Position numbers and translations under genes: made by a program. This document shows positions 31,197 through 51,210 of a DNA stretch of 64,000 nucleotides, in pieces. The stretch comes from Thermoanaerobaculia bacterium. Lineage in GTDB: Bacteria > Acidobacteriota > Thermoanaerobaculia > Multivoradales > JAGPDF01. How positions within the stretch are numbered: position 1 is the first letter of the stretch; each line of letters opens with the position of its first letter. Where the stretch lies: the NCBI GenBank assembly GCA_048500095.1, contig JASNYQ010000001.1, positions 1,182,696 through 1,246,695 on the forward strand. Direction: 5' to 3'. Under the pieces are notes generated by a model. It was not told the origin of the DNA. It saw only the letters and a list, made by a program, of their open reading frames with translations, and searched no databases.

Positions 31197-31235
31197 ATCG
31201 CCTGGCACCTTCTTGCACCTTCTTGGCAGGGCTTC
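31197..31235. repeat. REP-like repeat copy (AGATCGCCTGGCACC) plus CACCTTCTTG x2 tandem
   Basis: Member of the dispersed family RGGTGCCAGGCGAYYTGCRGG, in reverse orientation. Confidence 0.7.
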
Positions 31236-31270
31236 GCGGCAGGTACACTGCCGCGGTCGGGAGGAGAGCC

Positions 31271-31969
31271 ATGAAGAGGATCGGCCTGATCGGCGGGATG
31301 ACGCCGGAGTCCACCATCGCGTACTACCGCGCCCTGATCCGCCTCGGCCGGAGCGTGGCGGCGGATCCCCTCGACAACCCGGTGATCCTGATCTACAGCG
31401 TCAAGCTCTCCGAGATCTTCCGGCTGCAGGAGGCCGGGCGGGACGACGAGGTGGTGGGGATCCTCGGCGACGCGTTCGATCGGCTGCGCGGCGCGGGGGC
31501 CGAGCTCGGGTCGCTGACCGCCAACACGCCGCACGTCTACTTCGACCGGTTGGCGGCGCGCGCCGGCATGCCGCTCGTCAGCATCCTGGACGCGACGTTC
31601 GAGCGGACCCGGGCGCTGGGGTGCCGCAAGGTGCTGCTGCTCGGCACGCGCACCACGATGGCCTCGCCGATGTACCCGCGGCGGATGGCGGCCGGCGACA
31701 TCCGGGTGATCGTCCCCGAAGAGGCGGAGCGGGCGTTCGTGAACCGGACGATCTACGAGGAGCTCTCGGTCGGCCTGACCACCCCGGAGGCGCGCCGGGC
31801 GTTCGTCGAGATCTGCGAGCGGCACGTGAGGGAGGACGGCGCCGACGGGGTGATCCTCGGCTGCACCGAGATTCCGCTGCTCCTCGAGCAGGGGGACGTC
31901 TCGGTGCCGATGATCGACACCACCCAGGTCCACGCCGAGGCGATCTTCGCCGCCGCGCGTGCAGGCTAG
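31271..31969 (+). CDS. aspartate/glutamate racemase family protein
   Basis: MKRIGLIGGMTPESTIAYY N-terminus and GCTEIPLLL C-terminal motif. Confidence 0.75.
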   Translation: MKRIGLIGGMTPESTIAYYRALIRLGRSVAADPLDNPVILIYSVKLSEIFRLQEAGRDDEVVGILGDAFDRLRGAGAELGSLTANTPHVYFDRLAARAGMPLVSILDATFERTRALGCRKVLLLGTRTTMASPMYPRRMAAGDIRVIVPEEAERAFVNRTIYEELSVGLTTPEARRAFVEICERHVREDGADGVILGCTEIPLLLEQGDVSVPMIDTTQVHAEAIFAAARAG

Positions 31970-32026
31970 CGGTCGCTCCGAAGGTGCCCCGAAGGGTGCC
32001 AGGCGACTTGTCGGGAGGGAGAGGCG

Positions 32027-32589: not shown

Positions 32590-32690
32590 GCGGGTGCCCA
32601 GCGGGTGCCAGGCGACTTGCAGGACCCGACAGGTGCCAGGCGATTTGCAGTGACAGCGGCCCGAGACAGGTGCCAGGCGATCTGTGGCCG
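32590..32690. repeat. cluster of three direct REP-like copies (GGGTGCCAGGCGACTTGCAGG, AGGTGCCAGGCGATTTGCAG, AGGTGCCAGGCGATCTGTGG)
   Basis: Read directly. Spacers are irregular (~13-20 nt). Confidence 0.8.
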
Positions 32691-33284: not shown

Positions 33285-36200
33285 TCAGGGCGCGGCGGGC
33301 GGCTCCGTCGCCCCGAGGTCGAGCACCACCTCGCCGCCCGGCTCGAGCTGGAACGACGCGAGGGGGGCTCCGGGGAGGGGCTCGCCCCGCACGATTCCGC
33401 GCAGCGCTGGAAGCCACAGCTCTGGCGGGGTGCGGACGAGCACCCACGGCCCCGCGGCCAGGCCGTCCAGGCGGAGCCGGCCCTCGGGGAGCCCCGTCTG
33501 GAGCACGTTGACCAGACCGCCCAGGGGGAGGGTGGCCTCCGCCCCGACGAGGAAGAGCGGCCCCGTGAGCTGCGCCGCTCCGCCCAGGCCTTCGTCCGCA
33601 GTTCTCTGATCCCGAGGGCCGGTGCGCAGCACGAGCGAGCCGGTGGGCGGGAGCGCGAGGCGGTGCCGCCCGGCCCGCCCGGTGTCGACGCGGAAGCCGG
33701 CGATCGCGCGACCCGGGGCGTCGAGGAGCACGAGCGCCCGTCCCCGCGCCCCGCCACGCAGGCGGACGGTCGCGTTTCCCCTGGCATCGGTGACGAACCG
33801 GTGCCCATCGACCTCGCCGTCCGCGCGGAGGGCGAGGACCTGCCCCCCGATCGCCACGAGCGGAAGGCCCTCGGGGGAGACAAAGGCGAGGTCGAGCGGG
33901 CGCGACCTGCGCAGCACGAGGACGACCCCCGCGAGCCGTCCGTCCTCGGGCAGCTGCACGACCTGCGATTCGCTCTCCACCTCGCCCTTCTCGGCGCGCG
34001 CGGTGATCCGGTAACTCCCGCCGGCCACGCGGGTCAGGGCGAAGCTGCCGTCCTCGCGAATCGAGGCGGAAATCCCCGGATACGGCCTCTCGAACTCGCA
34101 CTCCGCCCCGGGCTCACAAGTGACCGCGAGAGCTCCGACGAAGCCCTCCCGCACCGGTTTCCCCTCCTCGTCCACCACCCGGCCCTCGATGCGCCCGCGC
34201 GGCGGCCGCACGATCACCTCCTCGTCCGGGTCCTCGAAGCGCACTTCCGGGACAACGGTGCTCTGCCCGCGGCGCGGATCGAACCACTCGACCAGGTACG
34301 TCCCCGGCCCGGGGAGCCGGATCGTGAACGAGCCGTCCGGGGCGGACGGGGTGAAGTTCGTCCCACCGCGCCTCCCCTCCACCTCGGGCCAGCTGACGCC
34401 CAGATCGAACGCGAGACTCTCCTCCTCCTCGCTCGCGCCCTCCTCCGGCTCGGCGTCGTCCACGATCCGGCCGTGGAAGAGGAGGGTCTCCGTGACCATG
34501 GGCACGGCGAACGGGAGGACGCGGGTCTCCCCCTCGGCGAGCTCGACCGTCCGGGCGCCCCCCGGCTCGAGGTGCCCGTTCCGGTCGAGCGCGAGCAGCT
34601 GGACGAGCCAACTCCCGGGTGGCAGGCCCTCGACCTCCACCGACCCGCCCGGGAGCAGCTGCACCTGGCGCCACGGCCCCTCCAGCAAGGCGTCGTCGCC
34701 GGCCAGCGTGAGATCGACGAGGAGCTCGGCCGCGCCGCTCGCCTCCCCGACCTCGGTCGCCACGATCAGCGTCGCCGCGAGCCGCTCGCGGAGCCGGCCG
34801 AGGTCGTGGCGCGCCCCGGGGGCGAGCTCGGGCACCGCGCGCGCCACCGGCGCTAGCGCCGCCGAGCGCGGCGCCACCACCGCCGCGTACGCCCCCGCAG
34901 CGAGGTCCTCGAACACCAGCCGCCCGTCCTCGCCGGTCTCGCCCCGCGCCATCGCCCGCGGGCGCTCGCCCGCGACGAGCCGCCGCAGCGTCGCGTCCAC
35001 CTGCTCCGCACCGACGAGCAGCACCGCCGCCCCCCGGACCGGCGCGCGGCCGCCAGTGTCGACGACCTGGAGCGCGATCGAGACCGCCGGCCGCAGCCGC
35101 CGCGCCGCGAGCTCGAGCCGCCCGCCGGGCGCCACCTTCGCGCCGGGCTCCACCTCCGGCGCGAAGCCCGGGAAGCGCGCCCGCAGGTCGAGGCAGCCGG
35201 CCGGCACCAGCGCCTCCGCGAGCCCCTCGGTGTCGATCGCGAGCGGCAGCTCGAAGGCGAACGCCGGCGCGCGGCCAGGGACGGCGCAGTCGCGCACCCC
35301 CCACCACCCCCCGGCGGGCCGCTTCCCGCCGGGAGGCGGCAGGAAGCGCGCCACCACCCGCCCGGCGGCGAGGAGCGGCACCTCCAGCGCCGGGCGCGCG
35401 CCCTCGTCACAGGCCGCGGGCGGCAGTGCGAAGACGAGCGACACCAGCCCTGGCGCGCGCGCGCGGAAGAGGGTCTCCGCCTCGCAGGGCACGGCGGCAC
35501 GGAGCTGGAGCGATCCCTCCTCAACCCCGGCCACGGCAGTGGACTCCACGACCTCCAGTCGCCCGCGATCGAGGCGCTCGAGCCACACCTCGCCCTCCAG
35601 CCCCAGCGCTCCCGTGACCTGAAGGAACAGCTGGGCTCCGCCGCCTTCGGGAATCGGCCCCAGCTCGGCGTCGAGCGACTCGGCCGGGAACGGCTCGACG
35701 TGCTCCTCGACGATCCGGTCGGCCTCTTCCACCTGCCCCCGCCTGCGCAGAGCCCCTGCGAGCGCACTCCAAGCCCGCACCGTCGCCGGCGCCCTTGGGC
35801 CGAGCGACGCCTTTGCATGCTCGAGAGCCTCCTCGAAGACGGTCTGAGCCCGCTCCAGGTTCTCGCCCTCCTTCTCGAACTCGGACTCCACGAAGTACTG
35901 GAAGCCGAGCAGGATCATCCCGTCCACGGCCTCCGGGCTCGTGTTTCCGTAGAAGGCCCGCCGCAGCTCGAGGCCTTCTTCGATCAGACGGCGCGACTCC
36001 GCGAGATCCTCGAAGTGGATCGCGACGCCGCTCAGCTCCTGCAACACGCGGATACGCTCCGGAGTCCGGGGAGCCTCGAGCTCGAGGAACTCCTTGGCCC
36101 GAAGCAGCAGCTCCCGGCGCTTCTCGAACGGCGCGCCGGTCTCCCGCGCCGCAACGAGGCTGGCCCGCGCGCGGAGCTGAGGATCGACTTCCGTGCTCAG

Positions 36201-36449
36201 GCACTCCTCCGCCACCAGCTGCGTCAGCTGCGGCAACCGCTCGGCGTCGCGCCCGCCGGGGTCGGGACCGCGGCCCAGTGCCGAGTCGATCTCCGCCAGC
36301 GCCCGGGCGCAGACCGCATTTCGCTCGTTCGCTGTCATCCGGGCATCAGATCCTCCGGAGGCAACGCTTCCGCTGACCGAAACGACAGAGGAAACCCATG
36401 CAATGACCAGAACAGAACGCCCTACCATGTGAGTGTCTCCCCTTCCCAT
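33285..36449 (-). CDS. large protein with N-terminal TPR-like helices and carboxypeptidase-regulatory-like (CarboxypepD_reg) beta domains
   Basis: GRVVDEEGKPVREGFV...DGSFALTRVAGGSYRI motif and repeats of it. Start is uncertain (36449 or 36428). Confidence 0.55.
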   Translation of the reverse strand: MGRGDTHMVGRSVLVIAWVSSVVSVSGSVASGGSDARMTANERNAVCARALAEIDSALGRGPDPGGRDAERLPQLTQLVAEECLSTEVDPQLRARASLVAARETGAPFEKRRELLLRAKEFLELEAPRTPERIRVLQELSGVAIHFEDLAESRRLIEEGLELRRAFYGNTSPEAVDGMILLGFQYFVESEFEKEGENLERAQTVFEEALEHAKASLGPRAPATVRAWSALAGALRRRGQVEEADRIVEEHVEPFPAESLDAELGPIPEGGGAQLFLQVTGALGLEGEVWLERLDRGRLEVVESTAVAGVEEGSLQLRAAVPCEAETLFRARAPGLVSLVFALPPAACDEGARPALEVPLLAAGRVVARFLPPPGGKRPAGGWWGVRDCAVPGRAPAFAFELPLAIDTEGLAEALVPAGCLDLRARFPGFAPEVEPGAKVAPGGRLELAARRLRPAVSIALQVVDTGGRAPVRGAAVLLVGAEQVDATLRRLVAGERPRAMARGETGEDGRLVFEDLAAGAYAAVVAPRSAALAPVARAVPELAPGARHDLGRLRERLAATLIVATEVGEASGAAELLVDLTLAGDDALLEGPWRQVQLLPGGSVEVEGLPPGSWLVQLLALDRNGHLEPGGARTVELAEGETRVLPFAVPMVTETLLFHGRIVDDAEPEEGASEEEESLAFDLGVSWPEVEGRRGGTNFTPSAPDGSFTIRLPGPGTYLVEWFDPRRGQSTVVPEVRFEDPDEEVIVRPPRGRIEGRVVDEEGKPVREGFVGALAVTCEPGAECEFERPYPGISASIREDGSFALTRVAGGSYRITARAEKGEVESESQVVQLPEDGRLAGVVLVLRRSRPLDLAFVSPEGLPLVAIGGQVLALRADGEVDGHRFVTDARGNATVRLRGGARGRALVLLDAPGRAIAGFRVDTGRAGRHRLALPPTGSLVLRTGPRDQRTADEGLGGAAQLTGPLFLVGAEATLPLGGLVNVLQTGLPEGRLRLDGLAAGPWVLVRTPPELWLPALRGIVRGEPLPGAPLASFQLEPGGEVVLDLGATEPPAAP

Positions 36450-36802
36450 CAGTAGAAAGGCATCGGATCGCTGCAGGCGGCCTCTACGGCGCTGGTCAGC
36501 TGGCCTGCAGTGGGTGGATCTCCAGGACCGGTGCTTGGGCTGGTGTCCTCCAATTGACCCGCCACGTGGAGCCCCTCATGAATTAGGAGCGTTGCAGCGA
36601 AGGACGTCGCGAAACCCGCGAACCGGTCGCAGAGGAAGATCACACGATCATGGTTGCAGCAGGTGGTCCAGGCCCCCGTGGTGGGATTCTCACACGGCTT
36701 GACGTTGCTGCCGTGGGTAACACCCTCGCCGCGCCGGAAGACAACATACCCATTCAAGATCTCAACGCCGCTCATGCCAAGCGGCGAGTTGTCGAACAGC
36801 AT
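36449..36802 (-). CDS. small HExxH-motif protein (putative metallopeptidase-like, 117 aa)
   Basis: Sits at the low-coordinate end of a longer spurious ORF. Lower local GC. LLIHEGLHVAG motif. Several Cys. Confidence 0.35.
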   Translation of the reverse strand: MLFDNSPLGMSGVEILNGYVVFRRGEGVTHGSNVKPCENPTTGAWTTCCNHDRVIFLCDRFAGFATSFAATLLIHEGLHVAGQLEDTSPSTGPGDPPTAGQLTSAVEAACSDPMPFY

Positions 36803-36820
36803 CGAGCTGCTCCGAGGTGC

Positions 36821-36900
36821 CATGCGACTTGCGACGGCATCGCGCTGCTCTTCAGGTGTTCTTCGGGTGCTCTTCAGGTGCCATGCGATCTGCGCCAGAT
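36821..36900. repeat. two REP-like copies (AGGTGCCATGCGACTTGCG, AGGTGCCATGCGATCTGCG) with GTGYTCTTCRG tandem between
   Basis: Read directly. Forward orientation, immediately upstream of the HUH transposase-like gene. Confidence 0.75.
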
Positions 36901-36928
36901 TCAAGGGGGCGATGGCGTCTTCGAAGGC

Positions 36929-37858
36929 ATGCCACGCCGAATCCGCTTCGTGCCCCCCGGAGGCGCGCTCGTCGAGGTGACCTGCCGGACTCTCCAAGCC
37001 CGCCTCCTCCTGCGCCCCTCGCCCCTCCTTCGCGACATCACCCTCGGCGTTCTCGGCCGCGCCCAGCGGCAGACCGGGGTTGCGATCCACGCCTTCGTCT
37101 TCCTCTCCACCCACCACCACCTCCTCGTCTCCGTCTCGGACGCCGCCCAGCTTGCTAGGTTCGTCGGCTACCTCAACTCCAACCTCGCCCGCGAGCTCGG
37201 CCGGATGCACGCCTGTCGGGAGAAGTTCTGGGGCCGCCGCTATCAGGCCATCCTGGTCAGCGACGAGGAGGCCTCCCAGGTCGAGCGCCTCCTCTACCTC
37301 GCCCGCCACGGCTGCAAGGAGGGCTTGGTCTCCGACCCTCTGGACTGGCCCGGAGCCACCAGCTGGCAGGCGATGCTGGACGGAAGGCCGCTCGAGGGCA
37401 CCTGGTTCGATCGCACGGCGGAGAGCTTGGCGACGCGGAAGGGGGTCGAGTTCGGGGCCCGGGACTTCGCCAGCGCGGAGACCGTGGTGCTCGCACCGCT
37501 CCCGGCCTGGGCGCACCTCGAGCCCGAAGTCCAGCGGGAGCGGCTGCGGGAGCTCCTCGATCTCGCCCGGGCCGAGGCCGCGGCGATGCGCGAGGAGACC
37601 GGGCGCGAGCCCCTGGGCCGCGAAGCCGTGACACGGCAGGACCCTCATGGATCGCCGCTGCGGAGGAAGAAAGGTCCGGCGCCGCTGGTGCATGCGGCGA
37701 GCCGCGAGGTGCGAAGAGCTTACCGGGAGGCGTACCGTCTCTTCACGGCCGCCTACCACCGCGCGGCCGAGGCCCTGCGGGCCGGGATCGCCACCGTCGT
37801 CTTTCCCGAGGGTTGCTTCCCTCCACCTGGGCCGTTCCAGCGGCCGGCAACGGCCTGA
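36929..37858 (+). CDS. IS200/RayT-like HUH (Y1) transposase homologue with ~170-aa C-terminal extension
   Basis: IHAFVFLSTHHHLLV (HUH). FWGRRYQAILV...LLYLARHG resembles the catalytic-Tyr region of TnpA_REP/COG1943. The first conserved YHV is degenerate (VEV). Confidence 0.5.
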   Translation: MPRRIRFVPPGGALVEVTCRTLQARLLLRPSPLLRDITLGVLGRAQRQTGVAIHAFVFLSTHHHLLVSVSDAAQLARFVGYLNSNLARELGRMHACREKFWGRRYQAILVSDEEASQVERLLYLARHGCKEGLVSDPLDWPGATSWQAMLDGRPLEGTWFDRTAESLATRKGVEFGARDFASAETVVLAPLPAWAHLEPEVQRERLRELLDLARAEAAAMREETGREPLGREAVTRQDPHGSPLRRKKGPAPLVHAASREVRRAYREAYRLFTAAYHRAAEALRAGIATVVFPEGCFPPPGPFQRPATA

Positions 37859-38050
37859 GAGCAGCTTCTACCGAACCGACTTCCTCCCATCCACCAGGGG
37901 CGACTTGCGCCCGAACGGTAACGCGCACAAGCAACGACACTCGGTAGACCGATCTGACGCGGCACGCTTTGGCCCCAATCTGGCCCTGTCTCCCGCATGT
38001 CCGGCCGCGGCGCAGGCTTCGGGGTCAACGCGCGACATGCGCAACCGAGC

Positions 38051-38170
38051 CAGGCCTGGAAATCGCATGGCACCCTTTCGGCACCCTCTCGGCACCCTCT
38101 CGGCGCCGGCTATCCGGACGTGTCGGAAGTCGCCTGGCACCCTCTCGGCGCACCCTGCTCGCGCCCGACT
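38051..38170. repeat. REP-like copies in reverse orientation (AATCGCATGGCACCC, AAGTCGCCTGGCACCC) with GGCACCCTYTC x3 tandem
   Basis: Read directly. Inverted relative to the 36821..36900 copies, so the pair flanks the transposase-like gene. Confidence 0.75.
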
Positions 38171-38265
38171 CCCACAACCACGAGCCCCGGCTCGTCACGG
38201 GAAACCACCGTCCCTTGACAGGAACGCCTTCAATGAGTGGCACCCTCTCCAGCAGGCGAGGATTT

Positions 38266-38556
38266 CTATCGTCTTAAGGCATTTCCAAGGCGAGAAAGCA
38301 GCCACGCCACGAAGCCGAGCGCCGCGCCAACCACCGAGGCCGCCAGGCCGCTGTACAAGACAGCTGCCGGGATCCACATCCATCTTGGGCCAGGCGGCGC
38401 CTCACTCCAGCAGAACAAGAACCACAAAAAGAATCCAGCGATAAAGCCAAGCGCGGGCACGACCCTGGGCAAAGACACCGGTTGCCGACGAAGCACCAAC
38501 CAGGCCAGTAGACTCGGAAGTCCAAGGGCCATCACCAGCAGAGAGAAGTCTCGCAT
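38266..38556 (-). CDS. small 3-TM membrane protein, candidate RHS-toxin immunity protein
   Basis: ATG overlaps the RHS stop (TGATG). 96 aa, low GC, hydrophobic. Confidence 0.5.
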   Translation of the reverse strand: MRDFSLLVMALGLPSLLAWLVLRRQPVSLPRVVPALGFIAGFFLWFLFCWSEAPPGPRWMWIPAAVLYSGLAASVVGAALGFVAWLLSRLGNALRR

Positions 38557-40518
38557 CAGAAGTCCACCCCTCTACGCAACCGTCTTATGAGTTGCCTCAT
38601 GAAGAACCGAGTCAGGCGCTCCATCTGCTTATCGCGCTCGGAGCAGGGATCATAAGTGTCCGTCCAGGTCGCTTGGGCTTCATAGTCGAAACCCCAGTGG
38701 CTGAAAAACTCTAGACGAAGGGCGTGGCCGCCCAAGAACCACTTCCGACCAGCGTGCGAGAACGTGTCCTGCAGCTCATGGAGGTGCTCACCAAATGCTC
38801 GAAGATCTGCCGCTTCTATCGCATCATAGAGGTCGCGTTCGACATCCACCCTTTCGCGGAAATGCCGCCAGCCCTGAAATGGGTTGAAGGGGTGCTTCCA
38901 GCCGTGGTCCATTCCTTCATTGTAGGAAGCAATCATGTCGGCCTGGAATGGCGAGAAGTCTTCCTGAAGCGCCCAAGTGTGCGTCTTGTGAAGATGAAGC
39001 TCGGTTCTATAGAGGCCTGATGGGTCCTTGGAATTGACTGGATCGTTGGCGGAATACTCAAACAGACCAGCTGATCCGCCTTCGAACCCAATCGGATCCT
39101 TCGCCGTCCACCTCCCCACCTCCGGGTCGTAGTCCCGCGCCCCGAACCGCACGAGCCCGGTCTGGGGGTCGTAGAGCCCTCCAGCGAACCCGAACGGCTG
39201 CCAGCCCGGATTCGAGTCGTAGGTGATCCGGCCCCAGGCGTCGTAGTCCAGCCGCTGCACGACCGCCCCGCTGGTGGCGTCCACCACCAGCCGCACGCTG
39301 CCCAGGTGGTCGGTGAGCATCCGGTAGGTCGTGCCGCCCGCTACCAGGTAGTCCGGTACGTGCCCCTGCGTCCCGTACACGAACGTCTTCGTGACCGCCC
39401 CCGTCCCGTCCGTCTCCGCCGCCGGCGCGAGGCCCCCGGCGTAGAGCCAGCCCTGCGTCAGCACCCCGTCGACCCGCTTGCCGATCCGCCGGCCCGAGGC
39501 GTCCACCAGGTACTCGATCGCGATCCCGTCTGGCAACTCCACCCCGAGCAGCGACCCGCGGATGTCGTAGGCGTACGAGGTGGTCTCCGGCCCCGCGCTC
39601 TCGGTCAGCCGCTCGCCGTTTGCCGTATAGGTGAAGGCCTTGGCGCCCGCCGTGAGCTGCCGGTCCTGCGCGTCGTAGGTCGCCACCCCCGAGCCCCAGA
39701 AGTCGCTCCAGCTCGTGCGGTTCCCGTTGCCGTCGTAGCCGTAGCTCGCGACCGGCACCCCGTCTCTCCGCACCTCCGTCAGCCACCCCCGCTCCGGGTG
39801 GTAGCCATACTCCCACACCGCGGTCACCCCGCCGATCGTCTCCGTCCGCCGCGTGATCCGGCCCCCCGCATCCCGGTCCAGGTCGTAGGCGTACGCCACC
39901 GACCCGCCGATCCGCGCCGTGAAGACGTCCAGCTCCCCGAACCCCGTCCGCGTCCGCTCCTCCGAGGTCACCCCCAGCGCCGTCGTCGCGAGCCACCCGC
40001 TCGCCGCCTCCCGGCCGAGGTCGAGCTCCCCGGCCCGCACCAGCAGGCCGTCGGGGTCGTACTCGTACGCCACAGGAGCGCCCCCCGCCACCGTCCGCCC
40101 GGCCAGCCGCAGGTCCGCGTCGTAGCTGAAGCCGATCGCGCCCGCGACCGGGCCCGACGTGGCGATCGAGGTGAGAAGCGGCCCCTCGTACCCGAAGGTG
40201 CTCTGGAAGCCGCCCGGCGCCGCGACCGTGCTCACCCGGCCGCTCGCCGCGTCGTAGGAGAGGTCCACCACCCCGGTCGGCAGCGTCACGAAGTCGAGAC
40301 GCCCGCTCGGCTCGTAGCTCGGGAGCAGCTCCTGACCGTCCGGCCGCGTCACCGCCGTCAGCTGCCCGTCGGCGTTGTAGGCATACCTCGTGTGCCGCGG
40401 CGCGAAGCCCGCCTCCGGAGGGGTGTACGTGTCCACCAGGTCGGCGGGTGTGTAGCCGAAGTCGTGCGGTGGACGCGTCGGTGGGGTGATCGAGGCGGTT
40501 CGAAAATCGCCCAGCACC
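38556..40518 (-). CDS. RHS/YD-repeat protein, 5'-truncated, with RHS core (DPxGL) and unassigned C-terminal toxin domain
   Basis: YD repeats (YAYDxxGrL) begin near aa 165 of the ORF. Core motif ARDYDPEVGRWTAKDPIGFEGGSAGLFEYSANDPVNSKDPSGL. The last ~150 aa are low GC and His-rich. The ORF's first ~160 aa are Arg/Ser junk, and GTG at 40518 is the likely start. Confidence 0.7.
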
Positions 40519-40569
40519 CTATCGGCGCCCTCTCGGTTCGGCGCAGTTAGGTCCTCTCTCGGGCGCCCT

Positions 40570-41265
40570 TCACGGGGGCCCCGGCTGCACTTGCAGGACC
40601 ATCTCGCGCAACTCGGCATCGGTCCGCGCGGTGCGTTCTTCCACGATGAGCTCAGGCTCGAGAAGCAGAACGGGGTCGTGGTAGCGGAACTCGCGGGGTG
40701 GTTCTCCCGGTTGATACTCCGGCAGCATGAAGTACGCCTTGTAGTCCATAGTCCGGCCTTCCAGAGTGACGCGCGAATCAAACGCGATAATCGCCTCCGG
40801 AGTCTGGACTTCTCGCCCGGCCTCTCGATGGTACTGGAAGATAGCCTCGACGGTGAGCTTGGCCGCTTCTTCGCCCTCCGCGTCGGGGGCAGTGTTCGTG
40901 ATCCAACGCGCCGCGAACGAGATGCCCAGCGGCTGCCCGTTGAGCGAGCGCGTCGAAACGGTGATCCCGATCGAATGGCTCGGAGCAACGGTGAGGACGT
41001 CGCTCAGGTTGGCCTTTCCGAACTCGCTCTTCGGAATGACCCGGACGTTCGAGATGTCGATCGTCAGAGGCGTTCCGGTCGCGGTCACCTGGCGCTCGTG
41101 GCGGGCGTAGACCTCCCGCACGAGAGCCTCAGCGCTCAGCGCCTCGCCTGAACCTGCTACCGGGCTCGGCACCTCGGCGAGCGAGGCGCCGACCAAAGAG
41201 AGCAGGGCGACAACCCCATGTGTGAGACCAACCCATAATCTCTGTCTCTCTCCACGCTTCGACAC
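40570..41265 (-). CDS. secreted hypothetical protein (232 aa)
   Basis: GTG start gives MSKRGERQRLWVGLTHGVVALLSLVGASLA signal peptide. Lower GC. Confidence 0.45.
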   Translation of the reverse strand: MSKRGERQRLWVGLTHGVVALLSLVGASLAEVPSPVAGSGEALSAEALVREVYARHERQVTATGTPLTIDISNVRVIPKSEFGKANLSDVLTVAPSHSIGITVSTRSLNGQPLGISFAARWITNTAPDAEGEEAAKLTVEAIFQYHREAGREVQTPEAIIAFDSRVTLEGRTMDYKAYFMLPEYQPGEPPREFRYHDPVLLLEPELIVEERTARTDAELREMVLQVQPGPP

Positions 41266-41289
41266 AACCCCTGACGACCACCGCTGCGA

Positions 41290-41460
41290 CTGAAGATCGC
41301 CTGGCACCCTTTCAGGCAGCACCTCCCCCTGTCGCCCCTCATGCCGGGGGCAAGGCGCACCCCTGAGGGTCTGTACCTGACCTTCACGACCGAATCCGGC
41401 CTGCAAATCGCCTGGCACCTTCTTAGCACCTTCTTACACCTTCTTACACCTTCTTAGCTC
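41290..41460. repeat. two REP-like copies (reverse orientation) and CACCTTCTTA x4 tandem
   Basis: GATCGCCTGGCACCC at ~41296 and AATCGCCTGGCACC at ~41408. Perfect 10-bp tandem at 41417..41456. Confidence 0.8.
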
Positions 41461-41467
41461 TCACAAA

Positions 41468-41980
41468 CTACTCAGGTCGGCTGCCGACCTCTCGCCCAGC
41501 ACTCTCCAGCCACTCGTTCGTCCTTCCCTTTCCCGCGTATCCCCTGAGGATCATCGGATCCGCATCAGCGGTCCGGACGGCAACGAGCGTCGGAAAGCCC
41601 TGGACGCTGAAGCGGCGCTGCAGCTCCTCAACCTCCTTCGCGTTTTGCCCCTCCTCGAACTCGCGATCGACTACGCGAACCGCGACAAACCTGGCATTGA
41701 CCAACTCAGAGGTCTTCCCATTTCGGAACACCTCCCTCTCGAGCTGCGCGCAGGGTCCACACCAGTCCGCCGTGAACCAGAAGAGAAGCGGCTTCCCCGA
41801 ATCCGCCTGCCCCTCCATAGCAGCGACTGGCTCCTGCCACCTGACAAGGTCCGGGGCTCTCGACGGGTTTCGGTACTCGAGAACCCCACTCATCACACGT
41901 CCAAACAGAAGCAGGCCGGCCAGCACCAGCATCCATTTCGGGACCGCCCGGCTCGAACCCGCGACCTCAGCGCTGCGCAT
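41468..41980 (-). CDS. membrane-anchored thioredoxin-like thiol:disulfide oxidoreductase
   Basis: WCGPC active site. N-terminal TM anchor. Confidence 0.7.
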   Translation of the reverse strand: MRSAEVAGSSRAVPKWMLVLAGLLLFGRVMSGVLEYRNPSRAPDLVRWQEPVAAMEGQADSGKPLLFWFTADWCGPCAQLEREVFRNGKTSELVNARFVAVRVVDREFEEGQNAKEVEELQRRFSVQGFPTLVAVRTADADPMILRGYAGKGRTNEWLESAGREVGSRPE

Positions 41981-42686
41981 AGGACAGCTCGCGTCGGTTG
42001 ATCAGGCAAATGGCACCCACAAGGCAGAGGGTGATGGTAGAGAAAAAGGACAGCACCGAATAGAGCGAGAGAGAGCCTACGCCCAGTGTCTCGCCAAGAT
42101 CGAGCATCGGGCAGAAGAAGCGCACTCCCTCCTCCCCCATGCGCGACCCAACCGGCCAACGATGTGACGCACCAAGGCCACGCAGCAATGAACACCCCGC
42201 CCAGGCAACGATCCACAGCACCCAATCACCCTGCTCGCTTACGACAGTTGAAACAAGCACAAGCACGGCAGCCACTGCAATCGCGATCAGCGCTCCATTG
42301 CCCAGCGCGAGGGCGAGCGCTCCGGCGGATGGCTGTGACCCAACCGTCATGAGGACGACCGCGCTCGTCAACACCCCGACGCTGTACAGCGCAGCGGCAA
42401 GGACTCCTGTCCCGAGCCACCTCCCCAGGACATAGCTGGCGCGGCGCACTGGTCGGGTGAAGATCAGGAGGAGAGCTCCTGTCCGGGCGTCCTGACCGAT
42501 TACGCCCGCACCGACGACAAGAACGAAGAGAGCACCGAACCCACCGTGCTGAAGGCGCGCCAGACCATGCTCTGGCGCGATCAGAACCCAGCCCCACTGG
42601 GCCACAATCACCGCGAGTGCCAGTGCCATGCGAAAGGGCGCGACCAGGCGCTCGCGAACGAAGGCGCGTGCGAATGTGGCGGTCAT
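41967..42686 (-). CDS. ABC-2 type transporter permease
   Basis: 6 TM helices. Overlaps the ATPase stop. Confidence 0.6.
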   Translation of the reverse strand: MTATFARAFVRERLVAPFRMALALAVIVAQWGWVLIAPEHGLARLQHGGFGALFVLVVGAGVIGQDARTGALLLIFTRPVRRASYVLGRWLGTGVLAAALYSVGVLTSAVVLMTVGSQPSAGALALALGNGALIAIAVAAVLVLVSTVVSEQGDWVLWIVAWAGCSLLRGLGASHRWPVGSRMGEEGVRFFCPMLDLGETLGVGSLSLYSVLSFFSTITLCLVGAICLINRRELSYAQR

Positions 42687-43690
42687 GCCTTCTCTCTGTC
42701 GGATCGGCTCTCGTCAAACAACCACTCTAGCCGGGGGGCCTCCGCCTGCGCCGCCAAGATCCGCACTCCAGCCTCGTGAAGGGCGGCGAGCAAGGCAGCA
42801 CGGTCGTTCGCCGCCTCGACAAGGAAGCGCGCACCAGCTGAGTCGCTGCTTTCTAAACGGACATTCACTCTGGACGCGATCTCGCTGAGGCGCTCCGGCG
42901 CCGGCCGCTCGGAATCGGACGAGTGTGACCACTCAACTCGGATTACTCCGGGCCCTTCCGAACGCAATGCGGTGTCGAAGAGCGACTCGAGGCGGCCACT
43001 TCGAAGAAATGCTACCCGATCGCAGATCCGTTCAACTTCCTCGAGGCGATGCGAGTTCATGACCAGTGTGGTGCCCCTGGCCTTCAGATGGAGCAGACAC
43101 TCGCGCATTGCCATGACGCCAGCGGGGTCCACGCCCGATGTGAATTCGTCGAGGAACAGGATGTCAGGATCGGGAAGGAGCGCCTGCGCGATCAAGAGGC
43201 GCTGTTGCATACCCTTCGAGAAGTGCGCCACTCTTCTCCTTACGGCTGCTTCGCTCAATCCTGCAATCCCAATGACTCTCGTGATGTTTGCGGCCACTTC
43301 TTCCCGCGGCAGGCCAGAGAGCTTGTGGTGCCACTCCAGGAAGCGCCACCCTGTCGTCCAGCGATCGAACTGGAAGCGCTCGGGGACGTAGCCGACCCGC
43401 CGCAGCACACGAAGGTCACTCGGGGCAAAGCCGCCAATTCGGACCTCGCCTTCGTCCGGACGAAGCAACCCGAGCAGGCAGCCCATGAGGGTTGTCTTTC
43501 CGGCGCCGTTCGCACCAATGACACCCATTGCTTCTCCGGGACGAACCGTCAACGTCACGCCGTCGAGCGCACGGCGCCGAGGATGTCCGAAACTCTTCGA
43601 GAGGCCGCTGGCAGTAACCCCCATTGGCTCGGGCCGCCGACCGCCGTCCACTACGACAGGGTCGGGATTCGTCGCTTGATGAACAGACAT
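42683..43690 (-). CDS. ABC transporter ATP-binding protein
   Basis: GANGAGKTT Walker A, FSKGMQQRL signature, ILFLDEFTSGVD Walker B. Start chosen at MSVHQ. Confidence 0.8.
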   Translation of the reverse strand: MSVHQATNPDPVVVDGGRRPEPMGVTASGLSKSFGHPRRRALDGVTLTVRPGEAMGVIGANGAGKTTLMGCLLGLLRPDEGEVRIGGFAPSDLRVLRRVGYVPERFQFDRWTTGWRFLEWHHKLSGLPREEVAANITRVIGIAGLSEAAVRRRVAHFSKGMQQRLLIAQALLPDPDILFLDEFTSGVDPAGVMAMRECLLHLKARGTTLVMNSHRLEEVERICDRVAFLRSGRLESLFDTALRSEGPGVIRVEWSHSSDSERPAPERLSEIASRVNVRLESSDSAGARFLVEAANDRAALLAALHEAGVRILAAQAEAPRLEWLFDESRSDREKA

Positions 43691-43817
43691 TATGGTTAGG
43701 AGAGAAGGTCCAGGGATCCCATCATCAGACCACCCCCCTCGCACCGACCTCCCTCGGCGCGAGGGGGGTTCGCCCGCAGAGCACGCCCTCAGGGGCCATG
43801 CCGATCTCTACGGCATC

Positions 43818-44456
43818 CTAGTAGCAACGTCCCTGGCCCGGCCCACCCCCGTTACAGGAGGTACCGCAGTCAAGCCACCCCCCACCTCCGAACACACAAC
43901 CCCAGTAGCAGGCGGCGTAGGCGCCGCACTCCCAGATGTTCTCGGGGTTCGGGCCCACCGAATCAACGGAATAGTGTACCAAGGCTAGCTGTACTTGCAG
44001 GATGGACACCATCTCTTCGCTCGTCGTGAGGCCGACAAGACCCGGAAGCACGCTCGATCGCAGCTGAGTCAACAGCGTCCCGTTCATCTGACTGAAGGCT
44101 CTCTCAACTACGTGCGGTACCGCCTGGCTGCCTCCCGCGAGTTCGAGAACGAGGATCGGCGGGAATCTCGAAGTCATAAGACCATGCTGGTAGCTTACTG
44201 AGATCGAAGTTGCGCCGGGATCATCGCTCGGGACAACCAGGAACTCGATCACCTCGTCGCCGAGTCGGTAGGCTGAGAAGTAGTGCTCCTCGCTGCCAAC
44301 CGTGATCGTCGTCGAAAACTCGACACCGTTGTACTCTCCGAAGAACTGCTTCGCCGACGCCTGGCATTTCCCCTGAGCCAACGCCTCCGCGGCCCCCCAG
44401 AAGAGGAGACAAGACACCAGAGCACACATGACAACCGAACCAGTGAGTCTCTTCAT
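43818..44456 (-). CDS. secreted protein with Cys/Gly-rich C-terminal tail
   Basis: Sec signal peptide. ~50% GC. C-terminus WECGAYAACYWGCVFGGGGWLDCGTSCNGGGPGQGRCY with 7 Cys. Confidence 0.5.
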   Translation of the reverse strand: MKRLTGSVVMCALVSCLLFWGAAEALAQGKCQASAKQFFGEYNGVEFSTTITVGSEEHYFSAYRLGDEVIEFLVVPSDDPGATSISVSYQHGLMTSRFPPILVLELAGGSQAVPHVVERAFSQMNGTLLTQLRSSVLPGLVGLTTSEEMVSILQVQLALVHYSVDSVGPNPENIWECGAYAACYWGCVFGGGGWLDCGTSCNGGGPGQGRCY

Positions 44457-44824
44457 AGTTCATCCTCCGTTCATGCTGCGGTTAAGAGCTGAGCCGGGTT
44501 GAGAGGCGCGGATCTCAGCTCGTGATTGAGTGGAGCAAGCTGGCGGTTCTTCTCGACTTCATCGGCACTCGTTCCAGTCTGAGCAGAGAGACCAACCACT
44601 CGGACGACAGGCCCCCTTGGTCCTGCAGAGTCTCGGTTTCGCCCAGAAGAAGGCACCCGAATCTGTCGCAAGCGCTTCGCTCAGCAGGCTCACTTCGATC
44701 TCCTCTTCTGTGATCCATTCCACTTGCAAGGTTCAACCCGGCTGCTATCGTCCATGTCATCGAGGACTCACTGGGTCTACTTACTAGACCCGCGAAATGG
44801 CCGGAGGGTGGACAGGGGGGAGGC

Positions 44825-45382
44825 ATGTGCCAGAACGGATCGGCTTCGAGCGAGCAGCCCTTCGTCGAAGGGCGCGAGGACGCGGAGGAACTCGCGCGAC
44901 TCCTTGCAGAGGTGCAGCCGGCGCTCCTGCGCCTCGGAGCGCGGAGGGGCCTCGGCCGGGAGGACTGCGAGGACGCGCTGCAGGAGACGCTGATGCGTTT
45001 CCATCAGGCGCAGGGGAGGGTGGCCAACCCGGTGGCTTGGCTGCACACCGTGATGCACCGGGAGTGCCTGCGTCTTCTCGGCCGCCGGCAGTTCGAACGG
45101 GAGGAGACGGCCGAGCGGGTGCTCGAGATGCGCGCGCGCGTGGACAGCGGCTTCGCGCAGCGGCTCCACCGCGTCGACCTCGGCCGGCTCCTCGGCCGCC
45201 TCCGCGCGCGCGAGCGCCGCCTGTTGCTGCTCTTCTACTTCGCGGGGGTGGAGGCGCGGGAGGTGGCGCGGCGGATCGGGTGCCGCACCTCCAGCCTCAA
45301 GCGGCTGCTCGCGCGGGCTCGCGAGGCGGCGCGGTCGGCGCTGCGCGAGACGGGATCGGTCCGCTCGCCGACCGAGGAGTGA
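44825..45382 (+). CDS. ECF-family RNA polymerase sigma factor
   Basis: Region 2 (EDALQETLMRFHQA) and a region 4 HTH (LLLLFYFAGVEAREVARRIGCRTSSLKRLLARAR). Confidence 0.75.
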   Translation: MCQNGSASSEQPFVEGREDAEELARLLAEVQPALLRLGARRGLGREDCEDALQETLMRFHQAQGRVANPVAWLHTVMHRECLRLLGRRQFEREETAERVLEMRARVDSGFAQRLHRVDLGRLLGRLRARERRLLLLFYFAGVEAREVARRIGCRTSSLKRLLARAREAARSALRETGSVRSPTEE

Positions 45383-50884: not shown

Positions 50885-51210
50885 GAACGCAGGCTGCCAG
50901 GTGCCAGGCGACTTGTAGGCGATCTGCCCCGGCCACCAGTAGGGGCGCGTCGCGACGCGCCCCCACAGCAGACGAGACGGCGAAGACAGGGGAGATCTGC
51001 ACCCGGCGGCAGGGTGCCGGCAGGGTGCCAGGCGACTTGCGGGCCGCGGCAGGGTGGCGACTTGTGGCAGCCACGTGCCGGGCGACTCGGGCGATCTACC
51101 CTGGCCACCGCAGGGGTGCGTCGCGACGCGCCCCTACAGCAGGCAAAACGGCGAAGACGGGGCGCAACGTGCCGCAAGGTGCCAGGCGACTTGCGGGCGC
51201 TGCCGGGGCG
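50885..51210. repeat. cluster of at least five REP-like copies (e.g. CAGGTGCCAGGCGACTTGTAGG, CAGGGTGCCAGGCGACTTGCGGG, AAGGTGCCAGGCGACTTGCGGG)
   Basis: Read directly. Intergenic, between msrA and the glycosyltransferase. Confidence 0.8.

Follow-up and report, generated by a model that had tools for sequence, protein, structure and literature searches.

Among the described systems, the TIRYT/TIRtron consists of a RAYT-like gene flanked by non-REP terminal inverted repeats (PMC3733652; Di Nocera, De Gregorio, Rocco 2013). The TIRYTs correspond largely to the TnpAY1 subclass 2.1 of Quentin et al. 2018 (PMC6006769) and to the RAYT Group 1 of Bertels, and they include an Acidobacteria group with Koribacter aba_1552/3477, Terriglobus, Acidobacterium, and Granulicella (PMC3733652). 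The REPtron is represented by the E. coli TnpA_REP / RayT (YafM; PDB 4ER8) with REP/BIME (PMC3333891, Ton-Hoang 2012; PMC3479197, Messing 2012). In IS200/IS605 elements, subterminal hairpins occur on one strand and inverted ends are absent; their proteins are ~150 aa long with a Y-x3-Q motif, and they occur in near-identical copies (PMC6006769 Table 1). Proteins of the TnpAY1 subclass 2.3, from Chromatiales/Alteromonadales, have a median length of 325 aa and the motif NHYH, and are present in ~4 copies per genome at ~75% identity (PMC6006769). This subclass is further characterised by YVDLNP, a 10-aa insertion, and a 55-aa insertion inside the core (PMC6006769).

The window, that is, the whole stretch of DNA that was analysed, comprises 64,000 nt of the Thermoanaerobaculia contig JASNYQ010000001.1. 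The locus described here is probably one element of ~1.25 kb, bounded by terminal inverted repeats (TIRs) and carrying a Y1 nuclease of the RAYT/TIRYT lineage; in other words, a TIRtron of an undescribed subfamily. The element is composed of a left repeat, (A)GGTGCCA-NN-CGA-YYT, a conserved 52-nt leader, an ORF of 309 aa, a spacer of ~200-270 nt, and the left repeat again in inverted orientation. The subfamily is large, with more than 1272 homologues counted in a protein search. Nearly all members seen so far come from Thermoanaerobaculia or other assemblies of Acidobacteriota; one of the 80 loci from genome contigs is labelled Solirubrobacterales.

The gene is located at 36929..37858 on the + strand and encodes 309 aa. 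A longer in-frame ORF starts from 36650; homologues and DNA conservation begin only at 36929. The predicted catalytic core spans about aa 1-135, with the HUH motif at nt 37112-37120 and Tyr123 at nt 37295-37297. The Pfam model Y1_Tnp (PF01797) matched aa 42-120 of the protein with 31.1 bits (E 2.8e-7), above the gathering cut-off of 23 bits, and it also matched all 38 aligned homologues. The closest homologue, P0001, shows 91% identity. The HUH motif that the sequence-only reading had seen in this protein is H62-H63-H64, and the metal histidines H62 and H64, together with Tyr123, are invariant in the alignment of the 38 homologues. The distance from HUH to Tyr is 59 residues, which is ordinary. 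The tyrosine motif of the family is Y-[LVI]-x-x-[HQN]-G (YLARHG in the window protein); the position +4 from Tyr is H, Q, or N across the alignment, and His127 of the window protein is likely the third metal ligand.

In comparisons with the family profile, Tyr123 was aligned with the catalytic Tyr of ISDra2 TnpA, E. coli TnpA_REP, and the TIRYTs. The profile E-value against 2xm3 was 1.5e-4, and the hhalign probabilities were 96.5% and 94.4% for the Koribacter TIRYTs aba_3477 and aba_2776, and 73.7% for E. coli TnpA_REP. The best NCBIfam match was REP_Tyr_transpos (NF047646) with E 2.3e-10 and 40.6 bits, below the cut-off of 80, and the IS200 model of NCBIfam gave 16 bits (cut-off 55). The relationship to Y1 enzymes that had been proposed from the letters of the DNA is therefore borne out by profile search (Y1_Tnp, 31.1 bits; REP_Tyr_transpos, E 2.3e-10), and a catalytic Tyr is present in the alignment with RayT-type proteins. 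The AF2 model of the protein had a pLDDT of 84.9 and a pTM of 0.84. With this model, Foldseek returned 30 matches at E <= 1e-3, all of them Y1 transposases; the best geometric match was 4er8 (TMt 0.67, rmsd 3.3 Å). The Y1 catalytic set is complete, and the core fold is TnpA_REP-like. The N-terminal segment once taken for a degenerate YHV is really the VEV (E16) that is invariant in the family, and is not a sign of decay.

Two residues of the window protein are unusual in the family. The middle HUH residue is His in this copy and Tyr or Phe in every other aligned member, and the family "W" motif carries W96C, which is unique among the 38 aligned sequences. Because of H63 and W96C, the window copy might, as far as its sequence tells, be less active than its relatives. 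The same two residues would suit a stronger view, in which this copy is a catalytically dead relic of a family that is perhaps functional. This seems unlikely, however. Neither a frameshift nor a stop interrupts the full-length ORF, which retains the metal-binding histidines and the Tyr, and two of the 108 conserved columns deviate, which is within the family range of 0-10. In addition, the dN/dS of the window gene against its paralogues is 0.17-0.19.

The C-terminal part of the protein, about aa 140-309 of the 36929..37858 ORF, forms a family-specific domain; the extension of ~170 aa noticed in the sequence-only reading is thus real and conserved in the family. No Pfam match was obtained for this domain in any of the 38 members, and a separate AF2 model of it matched none of the PDB folds (best E 1.4). 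The profile of the C-terminal domain alone retrieves 3182 cluster representatives. Among the described subclasses, Pfam families, and solved folds, none matches the ~170-aa domain and the Tyr motif.

Two forward copies of the repeat (A)GGTGCCAKGCGA lie upstream of the gene and two reverse copies lie downstream, where the sequence-only reading had placed them. The distal upstream copy, AGGTGCCATGCGACTTGCGACG, is at 36815..36836 on the + strand with the core GGTGCCATGCGA at 36816-36827; it is a T variant and matches the pattern exactly (nhmmer E 3.6e-5). It is followed on the + strand by three 11-nt tandem micro-repeats, TGCTCTTCAGGTG / TGTTCTTCGGGTG / TGCTCTTCAGGTG, detected by repeat finding at 36846..36880 with spacings of 11 and 11. 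These micro-repeats enter the proximal repeat, duplicating the flank and the first nucleotides of the motif. The proximal upstream copy, AGGTGCCATGCGATCTGCGCCA (36876..36897, + strand; core GGTGCCATGCGA at 36877-36888), was detected by both the pattern and nhmmer, and corresponds to the left terminal repeat. Its core starts 52 nt before the ATG, and the same 52 nt are seen in two homologous loci, L001 and L003. The leader that connects the left repeat to the ATG (36889..36928, + strand) contains the boxes CCAGAT (36895-36900) and CGTCTT (36916-36921) and is conserved in the three-locus alignment as well as in the consensus of 34 loci.

On the other side of the gene, the 3' spacer extends from the stop codon to the right repeat (37859..38052, + strand). 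The proximal downstream copy, which corresponds to the right terminal repeat, is at 38053..38075 on the - strand; its core, GGTGCCATGCGA, is at 38063-38074, and it lies 204 nt after the stop. Outside the right repeat, 11-nt tandem micro-repeats are again present on the - strand (38069..38111; GGCACCCTTTC / GGCACCCTCTC / GGCACCCTCTC / GGCGCC..., with spacings of 11 and 11). The distal downstream copy (38121..38156, - strand; core GGTGCCAGGCGA at 38130-38141) has a partial micro-duplication on its outer side. Farther out, an orphan half-site, TGGCACCCTCTC (38238..38249, - strand), consists of the outer half of the motif and the micro-repeat unit, without the TCGCC part.

Elsewhere in the window, ten intact copies are found without a gene at five intergenic sites. 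One copy (31198..31209, - strand) is in a gap of 54 nt that separates two ORFs of the + strand on the GC3-based map, and another intergenic copy (31995..32006, + strand) has an upstream partial duplication, cgaaGGTGCCccgaagGGTGCC. Three intergenic copies, at 32604, 32632, and 32669, form a direct array (32604..32680, + strand). Of two copies on the - strand in the region 41297..41458 (41297-41308 and 41408-41419), the second is followed by four micro-repeats of ~11 nt (CACCTTCTTA...). The last site is a direct array of three copies, at 50900, 51024, and 51178 (50900..51189, + strand), and a duplication of 11 nt, AGGCGACTTGT / AGGCGATCTGC, adjoins the copy at 50900 on its 3' side (50900-50927, + strand). 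With one mismatch or less, GGTGCCAKGCGA was matched 19 times in the window, compared with 1.16 +/- 1.14 times in shuffled sequences, and none of 100 shuffles reached 19. The nhmmer profile separated 14 true copies (E <= 4.5e-5) from noise (E >= 0.96); on the rough GC3-based gene map, these 14 clear copies occupy six intergenic sites. By tblastn, no further copy or fragment of a Y1 gene was detected in the window. Position 8 of the motif is T in three of the four flanking copies and G in every dispersed copy of the window. Because of this difference, another paralogue, located elsewhere in the genome, may service the dispersed G-variant copies.

The repeats are not palindromic and contain no GTAG tag. 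DNA folds of ten cluster segments, calculated for both strands, were no stabler than those of shuffled sequences (z-scores of +0.1 to +1.5). Stems of the type GGTGCC-N5-GGTGCC with G.T pairs are weak and form only where micro-duplications exist. Since the repeats lack a palindrome, the TIRtron/TIRYT description fits better than that of the REPtron. The sequence-only reading had called the arrangement REPtron-like, with the signature of a RayT; the inverted flanking and the abundance of the repeat between genes hold, whereas palindromic REPs are contradicted by the folds.

The motif could also be regarded as a sigma-54 promoter, a terminator, an operator, or some other regulatory or structural site of the host that lies near the Y1 gene incidentally. 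Its copies are strictly intergenic, its reverse complement carries a -24-like TGGCAC, and the periodicity of 11 nt equals one helical turn. However, the -12 element of a sigma-54 promoter, as TGGCAC-N5-TTGC or TGGCAC-N6-TGC, is present in none of 153 copies, and neither sigma-70-like promoters nor intrinsic terminators were found in the locus. Furthermore, an incidental site would hardly be expected at fixed positions in opposite orientations in 60 of 81 loci, and the motif marks the exact ends of the homology between paralogues. A host site is thus extremely improbable. A search of 36400-38600 against Rfam gave no RNA family at E <= 1.

The layout of the window locus is shared with L001 and L003, and it is conserved within the Thermoanaerobaculia. 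A forward copy lies upstream of the gene in 68 of 81 homologous loci, modally ~52 nt before the ATG (50-58 nt in 34 of the 81), and a reverse copy lies downstream in 71, all but five of them 200-280 nt after the stop. Both sides are flanked, in opposite orientations and at fixed distances, in 60 of the 81 loci. When 82 related loci were counted (80 from genome contigs, L001, and L003), 72 forward and two reverse copies were found within 400 nt upstream, and 46 reverse copies and one forward copy within 600 nt downstream. Copies of the motif in the far flanks are seen in other loci as well. The left and right repeats of the same locus are more alike than those of different loci (4.77 versus 3.75 of nine variable positions), a co-variation that was reached in none of 5000 permutations. 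The enzyme and the repeat belong together, because dozens of related soil bacteria have this layout; the tie between the dispersed repeat and the enzyme, as first proposed from the window, is supported by the inverted flanking in the related loci (72:2 upstream, 46:1 downstream).

The 3' spacer is conserved in length in the family and not in sequence. An alignment of 67 loci contained no conserved block in the spacer besides the repeat, and RNAalifold on a subgroup of ten members gave -1.9 kcal/mol with no supported consensus structure. A candidate hairpin in the spacer, CACGAG-GCAR-CTCGTG, is 78% paired; its covariation was not above that of shuffled alignments, and it was rejected.

The genomes of this group carry at least 3-5 diverged paralogues each. 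The median amino acid identity of paralogues within a genome is 79%, and 95% is reached by one of 59 within-genome pairs. The DNA homology among paralogous loci begins at the proximal left repeat. In several within-genome pairs with ~85-87% nucleotide identity, it extends from AGGTGCCA... to ...TGGCACCT, spanning 1.28-1.47 kb. Recent paralogues share their DNA exactly from repeat to repeat, and therefore the copied unit is the whole ~1.25-kb element. No target-site duplication was evident at the unit ends in seven paralogue pairs, and no empty site was recovered. Between L001 and L002, which are from near-identical assemblies, there is an indel of 239 nt bounded by repeat copies.

This indel, the discrete ends of the copied unit, and the presence of multiple copies per genome are what would be seen if the family were an ordinary, currently active insertion sequence, either a member of IS200/IS605 or a new kind of Y1 IS, and if the dispersed repeats, having no separate existence, were solo ends of it or remnants of MITEs. 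Some pairs of a forward and a reverse copy without a gene, spaced by 67-97 nt, do look MITE-like (in the loci L029, L036, and L065). However, no near-identical copies were seen (median 79% aa, one pair at 95%), and orthologous positions are kept across ~40% protein divergence. The dispersed copies are mostly direct arrays of single ends and not pairs of ends. The hairpins, the type of end, the ~150-aa size, and the Y-x3-Q of IS200/IS605 (PMC6006769 Table 1) are all unmatched. An active IS is accordingly quite improbable.

Some loci have been inherited vertically for long periods, with the gene under purifying selection. Syntenic orthologues diverge together with their neighbours: for the gene located after ruvA, the identity is 58.6% for the Y1 protein and 59.7% for RuvA. 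The dN/dS values are 0.17-0.23 in both domains. The window locus and L003 both adjoin RHS genes; at the thresholds used, no exact-match synteny was detected between them, and they are not claimed to be orthologous. The protein had been suggested to be divergent or domesticated. It is divergent; "domesticated" is no more than half true, in that loci persist vertically for long periods and yet copying occurs now and then.

Persistence of this kind is also expected of a classical REPtron, an immobile, single-copy, domesticated RayT with palindromic REP substrates, in which the inverted orientation locks the gene. Vertical inheritance with co-diverging neighbours at some loci and purifying selection would agree with it, as would the inverted arrangement and the abundance of the motif in intergenic DNA. 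Its name is also favoured by the best NCBIfam match, REP_Tyr_transpos, and by JGI, which annotates homologues as "RayT". That match is below its cut-off, however (40.6 < 80), and the Y-x3-N-P tyrosine motif of RAYT class 2 is absent from the 38-sequence alignment. The repeats are non-palindromic, as the positive z-scores of the folds indicate, and have no GTAG-type tag with a hairpin. Motif pairs in arrays are far more often direct (121) than inverted (29), unlike those of REPINs or BIMEs. Finally, there is not a single copy but at least 3-5 paralogues per genome, and the gene-bearing unit is itself copied from repeat to repeat. Little probability is therefore left to a classical REPtron, and the locus is better described as a TIRtron-type element.

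A partial tandem duplication is attached to the 5' side of 37 of 153 motif copies (~24%), against a background of 0.5%, and its modal period is 11 nt. The duplication ends after nucleotide 5 or 6 of the motif (GGTGC/GGTGCC) in 23 of the 37 cases. The 3' duplication at 50900-50927 has the same boundary as these 5' micro-duplications. The pattern in the sequences suggests a break-and-join point at about GGTGCC^A. Because the micro-duplications end around the last C of GGTGCC, before the A, GGTGCC^A is a possible cleavage site. Motif-anchored micro-duplications were not found reported for TIRtrons in the TIRtron literature that was searched.

By analogy with the TnpA of IS608/ISDra2 and with E. 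coli TnpA_REP, the enzyme, probably as a dimer, would bind the motif, the putative target being written AGGTGCCAKGCGAYYTG / CTCTTCAGGTGCCATGCGATCTGCGCCAG. The DNA might then be nicked and rejoined via a 5'-phosphotyrosine intermediate at Tyr123, with H62, H64, and the residue at position +4 from the Tyr as the metal ligands. Through this activity, the whole unit would occasionally be copied, and the gene-less arrays would be seeded or maintained. The gene-less motif of 13-17 nt, mostly in short direct arrays, would in this way be to the enzyme what REPs are to RAYTs. To our knowledge, the Y1 enzymes characterised so far all read DNA hairpins. Recognition of the present motif probably differs from the hairpin reading of the IS200/IS605 and REP enzymes, since the motif forms no hairpin, and the novel C-terminal domain may be involved in it. 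As far as the literature could be searched, no biochemical characterisation of TIRYTs was found, and we know of no demonstration of REP mobilisation in vivo, even for E. coli TnpA_REP. It is also to be noted that a "peel and paste" mechanism, which acts on one strand, is hard to reconcile with inverted ends.

A more far-reaching reading is that the family represents a new TnpAY1 subclass in which transposition or the seeding of repeats proceeds by a chemistry undescribed for HUH enzymes, a non-hairpin terminal motif of 13-17 nt being cleaved at about GGTGCC^A and the 11-nt duplications being the scar of the reaction. The motif would then possibly be read via the 170-aa C-terminal domain, and possibly on both strands of the inverted ends. 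We consider this reading doubtful; if it were true, both the mode of action of TIRYT-type enzymes and their cleavage site could be read from the genomes.

As a TIRtron-type subfamily, the present group bears on how REP-type repeats and tyrosine nucleases spread and persist. It is a readable natural data set, with sharp unit ends, visible copying from repeat to repeat, and a non-hairpin repeat, and its micro-duplications point to one phosphodiester bond in the motif. Therefore, hairpin-free recognition and the position of the cut by a Y1 enzyme become directly testable. The HUH superfamily gains a sizeable branch, as yet unclassified, that carries a new domain; a known concept is extended, and none is overturned.

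Compared with the known systems, the family shares with the TnpAY1 subclass 2.3 a long protein, the presence of several copies, the lack of REP hairpins, and a C-terminal domain of its own. It differs from that subclass in the Tyr motif, in the ordinary HUH-Tyr distance, and in the phylum, the two being set apart by description only. With the IS200/IS605 TnpA (IS608, ISDra2; PDB 2VJV, 2XM3) it has in common the HUH/Tyr core and the copying within a genome, and the +4 residue after the Tyr is sometimes Q, as in their Y-x3-Q. Unlike IS200/IS605, the present unit has inverted ends, no hairpins, and a protein of 309 aa. The likeness to the REPtron lies in the Y1 HUH core fold, in the short inverted repeats that bracket the gene and are abundant between genes, and in vertical inheritance at some loci. 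REPs are imperfect palindromes with a GTAG tag and a hairpin that is read by the enzyme, whereas the present repeats have no hairpin; E. coli TnpA_REP has 165 aa and is single-copy, whereas the protein here is 309 aa long and each genome carries several paralogues.

The TIRYTs were the best profile match among the sequences tested by hhalign. Differences from them are found in the motifs, Y-x3-N-P and W-S-S in TIRYTs (PMC3733652 Additional file 5) and Y-x3-[H/Q/N]-G and DWPG in the present family, and in the repeat, for which the consensus here is AGGTGCCANNCGA, unlike the GGGGWSAS of TIRtrons. The C-terminal domain of 170 aa has no relationship with the DnaA_C/HTH-like tail of subclass 2.1. 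In common with TIRYTs, the protein has the pattern MxRxxR..PG at its N terminus and, following the Tyr, the block KxGLV..P.(D/E)W. As in TIRtrons, the Y1/HUH gene lies between non-hairpin terminal inverted repeats at fairly constant distances, the repeats can form genome-wide families as single copies, dimers, and clusters, and several different genes are present per genome.

The Y1 locus extends from 36815 to 38156 in the window. A distal forward copy of the motif, (A)GGTGCCATGCGA, at 36816-36827 is followed by three tandem micro-repeats of 11 nt (36846-36880) and by a second, proximal forward copy (36877-36888). A 40-nt leader (36889-36928) leads from this left repeat to the ATG at 36929 of the 309-codon Y1 ORF on the forward strand, which ends at 37858. 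Beyond a 3' spacer of 194 nt comes the right repeat, a proximal reverse copy (38063-38074) having 11-nt micro-repeats on its outer side (38069-38111), and a distal reverse copy lies at 38130-38141. The inverted flanking described in the sequence-only reading is confirmed, with small coordinate corrections. The reading frame runs back to 36650 in the mechanical ORF list; the start was placed at 36929 because the homologues open with M-x-R-R there and the DNA conservation between paralogues begins 52 nt before this ATG. No other copy or fragment of the Y1 gene was found on searching the whole window.

The motif, (A)GGTGCCA-NN-CGA-YYT, is far from a chance pattern. With up to one mismatch, 19 matches were found in the window, against 1.16 expected. 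In a profile search, 14 clean copies stood apart (E <= 4.5e-5; noise at E >= 0.96), and all 14 are intergenic in the GC3-based gene map of the window.

The same layout is observed in L001 (between ruvA and ruvB) and L003, two paralogous loci of another genome, in which the proximal forward copy also begins 52 nt before the ATG. When these were combined with 80 loci taken from species-representative genomes, the copies within 400 nt upstream of the gene were 72 forward versus 2 reverse, and those within 600 nt downstream were 46 reverse versus 1 forward. Counted over 81 loci (window included, one mismatch allowed), an upstream forward copy is present in 68, at 50-58 nt in 34 of these, and a downstream reverse copy in 71, all but five at 200-280 nt past the stop; 60 loci have both. 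The proposed link between the inverted flanking and the gene is thereby borne out: the arrangement is meaningful, and it is the strongest result of this analysis. The motif varies among loci in its central dinucleotide and its tail. Left and right copies of one locus are more alike (4.77 of 9 variable positions) than copies of different loci (3.75), a level that none of 5000 permutations reached, genome of origin being uncontrolled in this comparison. In a subgroup of 306-aa proteins (L051, L054, L057, L061, L066, L070, L074, L076, L082, and L083), the left repeat has drifted (e.g. AGGGGCCAGACGATTC) and the right repeat is kept; a different conserved block, AAACCCCCCTCGCAAAC..., lies upstream.

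The leader in the window contains the boxes CCAGAT (36895-36900) and CGTCTT (36916-36921), and the same boxes occur in 34 loci, as (A)AGAT about 22 nt from the repeat start and CGTC(T/C)(T/C) about 12-15 nt before the ATG. Neither a recognisable Shine-Dalgarno sequence nor a sigma-70 promoter was found in 36889-36928, which could be an unusual promoter, leader, or autoregulatory site. Rfam families, sigma-70-type promoters, and terminators were not detected in the Y1 locus. The 3' spacer keeps its length across loci and not its sequence, and it gave no supported consensus structure.

The window protein matches Pfam Y1_Tnp with 31.1 bits, above the gathering score of 23, in line with the expected likeness to Y1 transposases. 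Among NCBIfam models, REP_Tyr_transpos matches best (E 2.3e-10), but its 40.6 bits are well under the curated cut-off of 80 bits; the IS200 model gives only 16 bits. More than 1272 homologues were retrieved from a set of 5.8 billion proteins. Among the 120 matches listed, nearly all are about 309 aa, and those with a named source belong to metagenome-assembled genomes of Thermoanaerobaculia or Acidobacteriota. Thirty-eight homologues of 55-91% identity were aligned: His62, His64, and Tyr123 are invariant, and the residue at Tyr+4 is His, Gln, or Asn. The profile of these homologues places Tyr123 on the catalytic tyrosine of both ISDra2 TnpA (2xm3, E 1.5e-4) and E. coli TnpA_REP (4er8, E 0.016), so that the tyrosine suspected from the sequence was located. 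The AlphaFold model has high confidence (pLDDT 84.9, pTM 0.84). All PDB matches to its N-terminal half are Y1 transposases, and it superposes best on TnpA_REP (TMt 0.67, rmsd 3.3 Å, 159 columns). The catalytic mechanism would be that inferred from IS608/ISDra2 and TnpA_REP. Both halves of the protein are under purifying selection (dN/dS 0.15-0.24). It should be mentioned that the window copy reads H-H-H (37112-37120), against H-Y/F-H in its relatives, and carries W96C (37214-37216) at the family-conserved Trp of the 'W' motif; neither change is shared by any other sequence in the alignment of 38. Otherwise this copy departs from the family at just 2 of the 108 conserved columns, which is inside the family range.

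The C-terminal extension noted previously proved to be a conserved domain of the family (residues ~140-309). It has no Pfam match in any of the 38 members, and no PDB fold match was found when it was modelled alone. Its profile matched 3182 cluster representatives among 1.84 billion. The domain appears to be integral to the protein architecture, since the match spans ~131-305 in full-length (~310-aa) proteins and many shorter matches are fragment-like.

Genomes carry several paralogues, up to five among the 80 loci kept of 282 confirmed. The 59 within-genome pairs share 54 to 97% amino acid identity (median 79%), and one alone reaches 95%. The more recent pairs show one blastn homology block of 1.23-1.47 kb, which starts with (G)AGGTGCCA... 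and stops with ...TGGCACC(T) in L015/L032, L054/L083, and L038/L043; L037/L069 has the same boundary at the left end. In L038/L043 one end has drifted to AGGTTCCA, and the opposite end has drifted likewise. As the block boundaries lie at the repeats, the repeat-to-repeat unit is what is duplicated. In two genomes the Y1 gene directly follows ruvA, where RuvA is 59.7% and Y1 58.6% identical, and in other syntenic pairs Y1 and its neighbours also keep in step (71% versus 71%; 93% versus 92-97%). Some Y1 loci are thus ancient and stable. Of the two terms suggested earlier, 'divergent' is right and 'domesticated' half right: the family is under selection and persists for long periods, yet it is copied now and then, and so it behaves like something intermediate between an insertion sequence and a domesticated RAYT. 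L001 differs from the otherwise near-identical assembly at L002 by a 239-nt indel (L001:4786-5024) with motif copies at its ends; the additional segment holds the 3' end of a Y1 gene, its spacer, and a right repeat. This suggests a repeat-mediated duplication or deletion beside a decayed second unit; it is possibly an assembly difference.

On the 5' side of many motif copies lie tandem partial duplicates that combine local flank with the first motif nucleotides, such as GAGAGGGTGCC-GAGAGGGTGCC-GAAAGGGTGCCATGCGA. Of 153 copies in the window and the loci, 37 carry such a 5' duplication; at random positions the rate is 0.5%. The last duplicated base is motif nucleotide 5 or 6 (GGTGC|C|A) in 23 of these 37 copies. 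The modal period is 11 nt. A 3'-side duplication at 50900-50927 (GGTGCC|AGGCGACTTGT|AGGCGATCTGC) has the same boundary and period. Others in the window are at 36846-36880, 38069-38111, 41420-41458, and 31975-32000, and elsewhere in L019, L023, L026, L038, L043, L047, L055, L061, L074, and L083. Full units carry the same scars at both ends, on the outer side. The simplest reading of so consistent a boundary is that DNA would be broken and rejoined there, and it offers a concrete prediction for where the Y1 enzyme would cleave.

An RHS/YD-repeat gene (Pfam TEN_YD-shell, RHS_repeat) lies directly downstream on the reverse strand (38266-40517 region), followed by a hydrophobic-rich 96-aa ORF (38266-38556, reverse strand), possibly its cognate immunity gene. 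RHS-type neighbours are also present at L003, L068, and L016. A degenerate reverse motif copy with micro-repeats (AATCGCCCAGCACCCTATCGGCGCCCTCTCGG) at 40500-40536 falls inside a mechanical 810-aa ORF (38556..40988, reverse strand), which probably represents two genes in frame: the RHS gene from ~40517 and a separate ~220-aa gene (~40570-41230) without a Pfam match. At 36001-45000 the G+C content falls to 0.60-0.70, from 0.72-0.78 in the rest of the window. This lower-GC stretch has the Y1 unit at its left edge and the RHS gene inside it, and may be an acquired island. Upstream, a 117-aa ORF (36449-36802, reverse strand) without a Pfam match contains the HExxH-like sequence LLIHEGLHV; its start abuts the distal motif copy, and it ends at the start codon of a 1054-aa TPR/CarboxypepD_reg gene (33285..36449).

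The locus had been read as REPtron-like, which is essentially right, but the repeats lack the defining features of REPs. The ssDNA folds of ten cluster segments, computed for both strands, were no stabler than dinucleotide shuffles (z +0.1 to +1.5), and no tag-plus-hairpin architecture was found in the motif clusters. The weak G·T hairpins visible in these folds come from the micro-duplications and form on one strand only, because GGTGCC self-pairs via two G·T wobbles. Neighbouring copies within 300 nt are overwhelmingly direct (121 pairs versus 29), and these direct arrays are unlike REPIN doublets or BIMEs. A minority of copies form other arrangements: gene-less, MITE-like forward-reverse pairs 67-97 nt apart (L029:594-714, L036:5057-5151, L065:4295-4385) and a head-to-head pair with a palindromic 25-nt spacer (L075:2332-2380). 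A 248-aa ORF (31223..31969) lies between a reverse (31198) and a forward (31995) copy, in outward polarity opposite to that of the copies around the Y1 gene. A sigma-54 promoter, considered since the reverse complement has TGGCAC, fails in all 153 copies.

A TIRtron is a RAYT-like gene with non-REP terminal inverted repeats, which may form dispersed families, and the TIRYT proteins include a sharply defined Acidobacteria group (PMC3733652); Quentin et al. largely equated TIRtrons with subclass 2.1 (PMC6006769). In profile-profile comparison against the sequences printed in Di Nocera et al. (PMC3733652), the Y1 family was closest to the Acidobacteria TIRYTs (96.5% for aba_3477 and 94.4% for aba_2776, with 73.7% for E. 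coli TnpA_REP). More exactly described, the locus is a Y1/HUH element of TIRtron type that is bounded by TIRs, and its terminal motif also occurs as a dispersed intergenic repeat. The family departs from every subclass signature that Quentin et al. 2018 list in their Table 1 (PMC6006769): the published subclasses have Y-x3-N-P or Y-x3-Q, whereas this family has Y-x3-[H/Q/N]-G, and the block after the tyrosine is KEGLV..P.DWPG instead of ...W-S-S; the C-terminal domain is a third departure. Since it lacks the published TIRYT protein signatures, it is filed as TIRtron-like in working, as a new subfamily and not a member of a described group. This subfamily is large and unclassified, with a novel C-terminal domain, and apparently Acidobacteriota-centred. 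Its putative recognition of a non-hairpin site and its micro-duplication scars go beyond the known systems.
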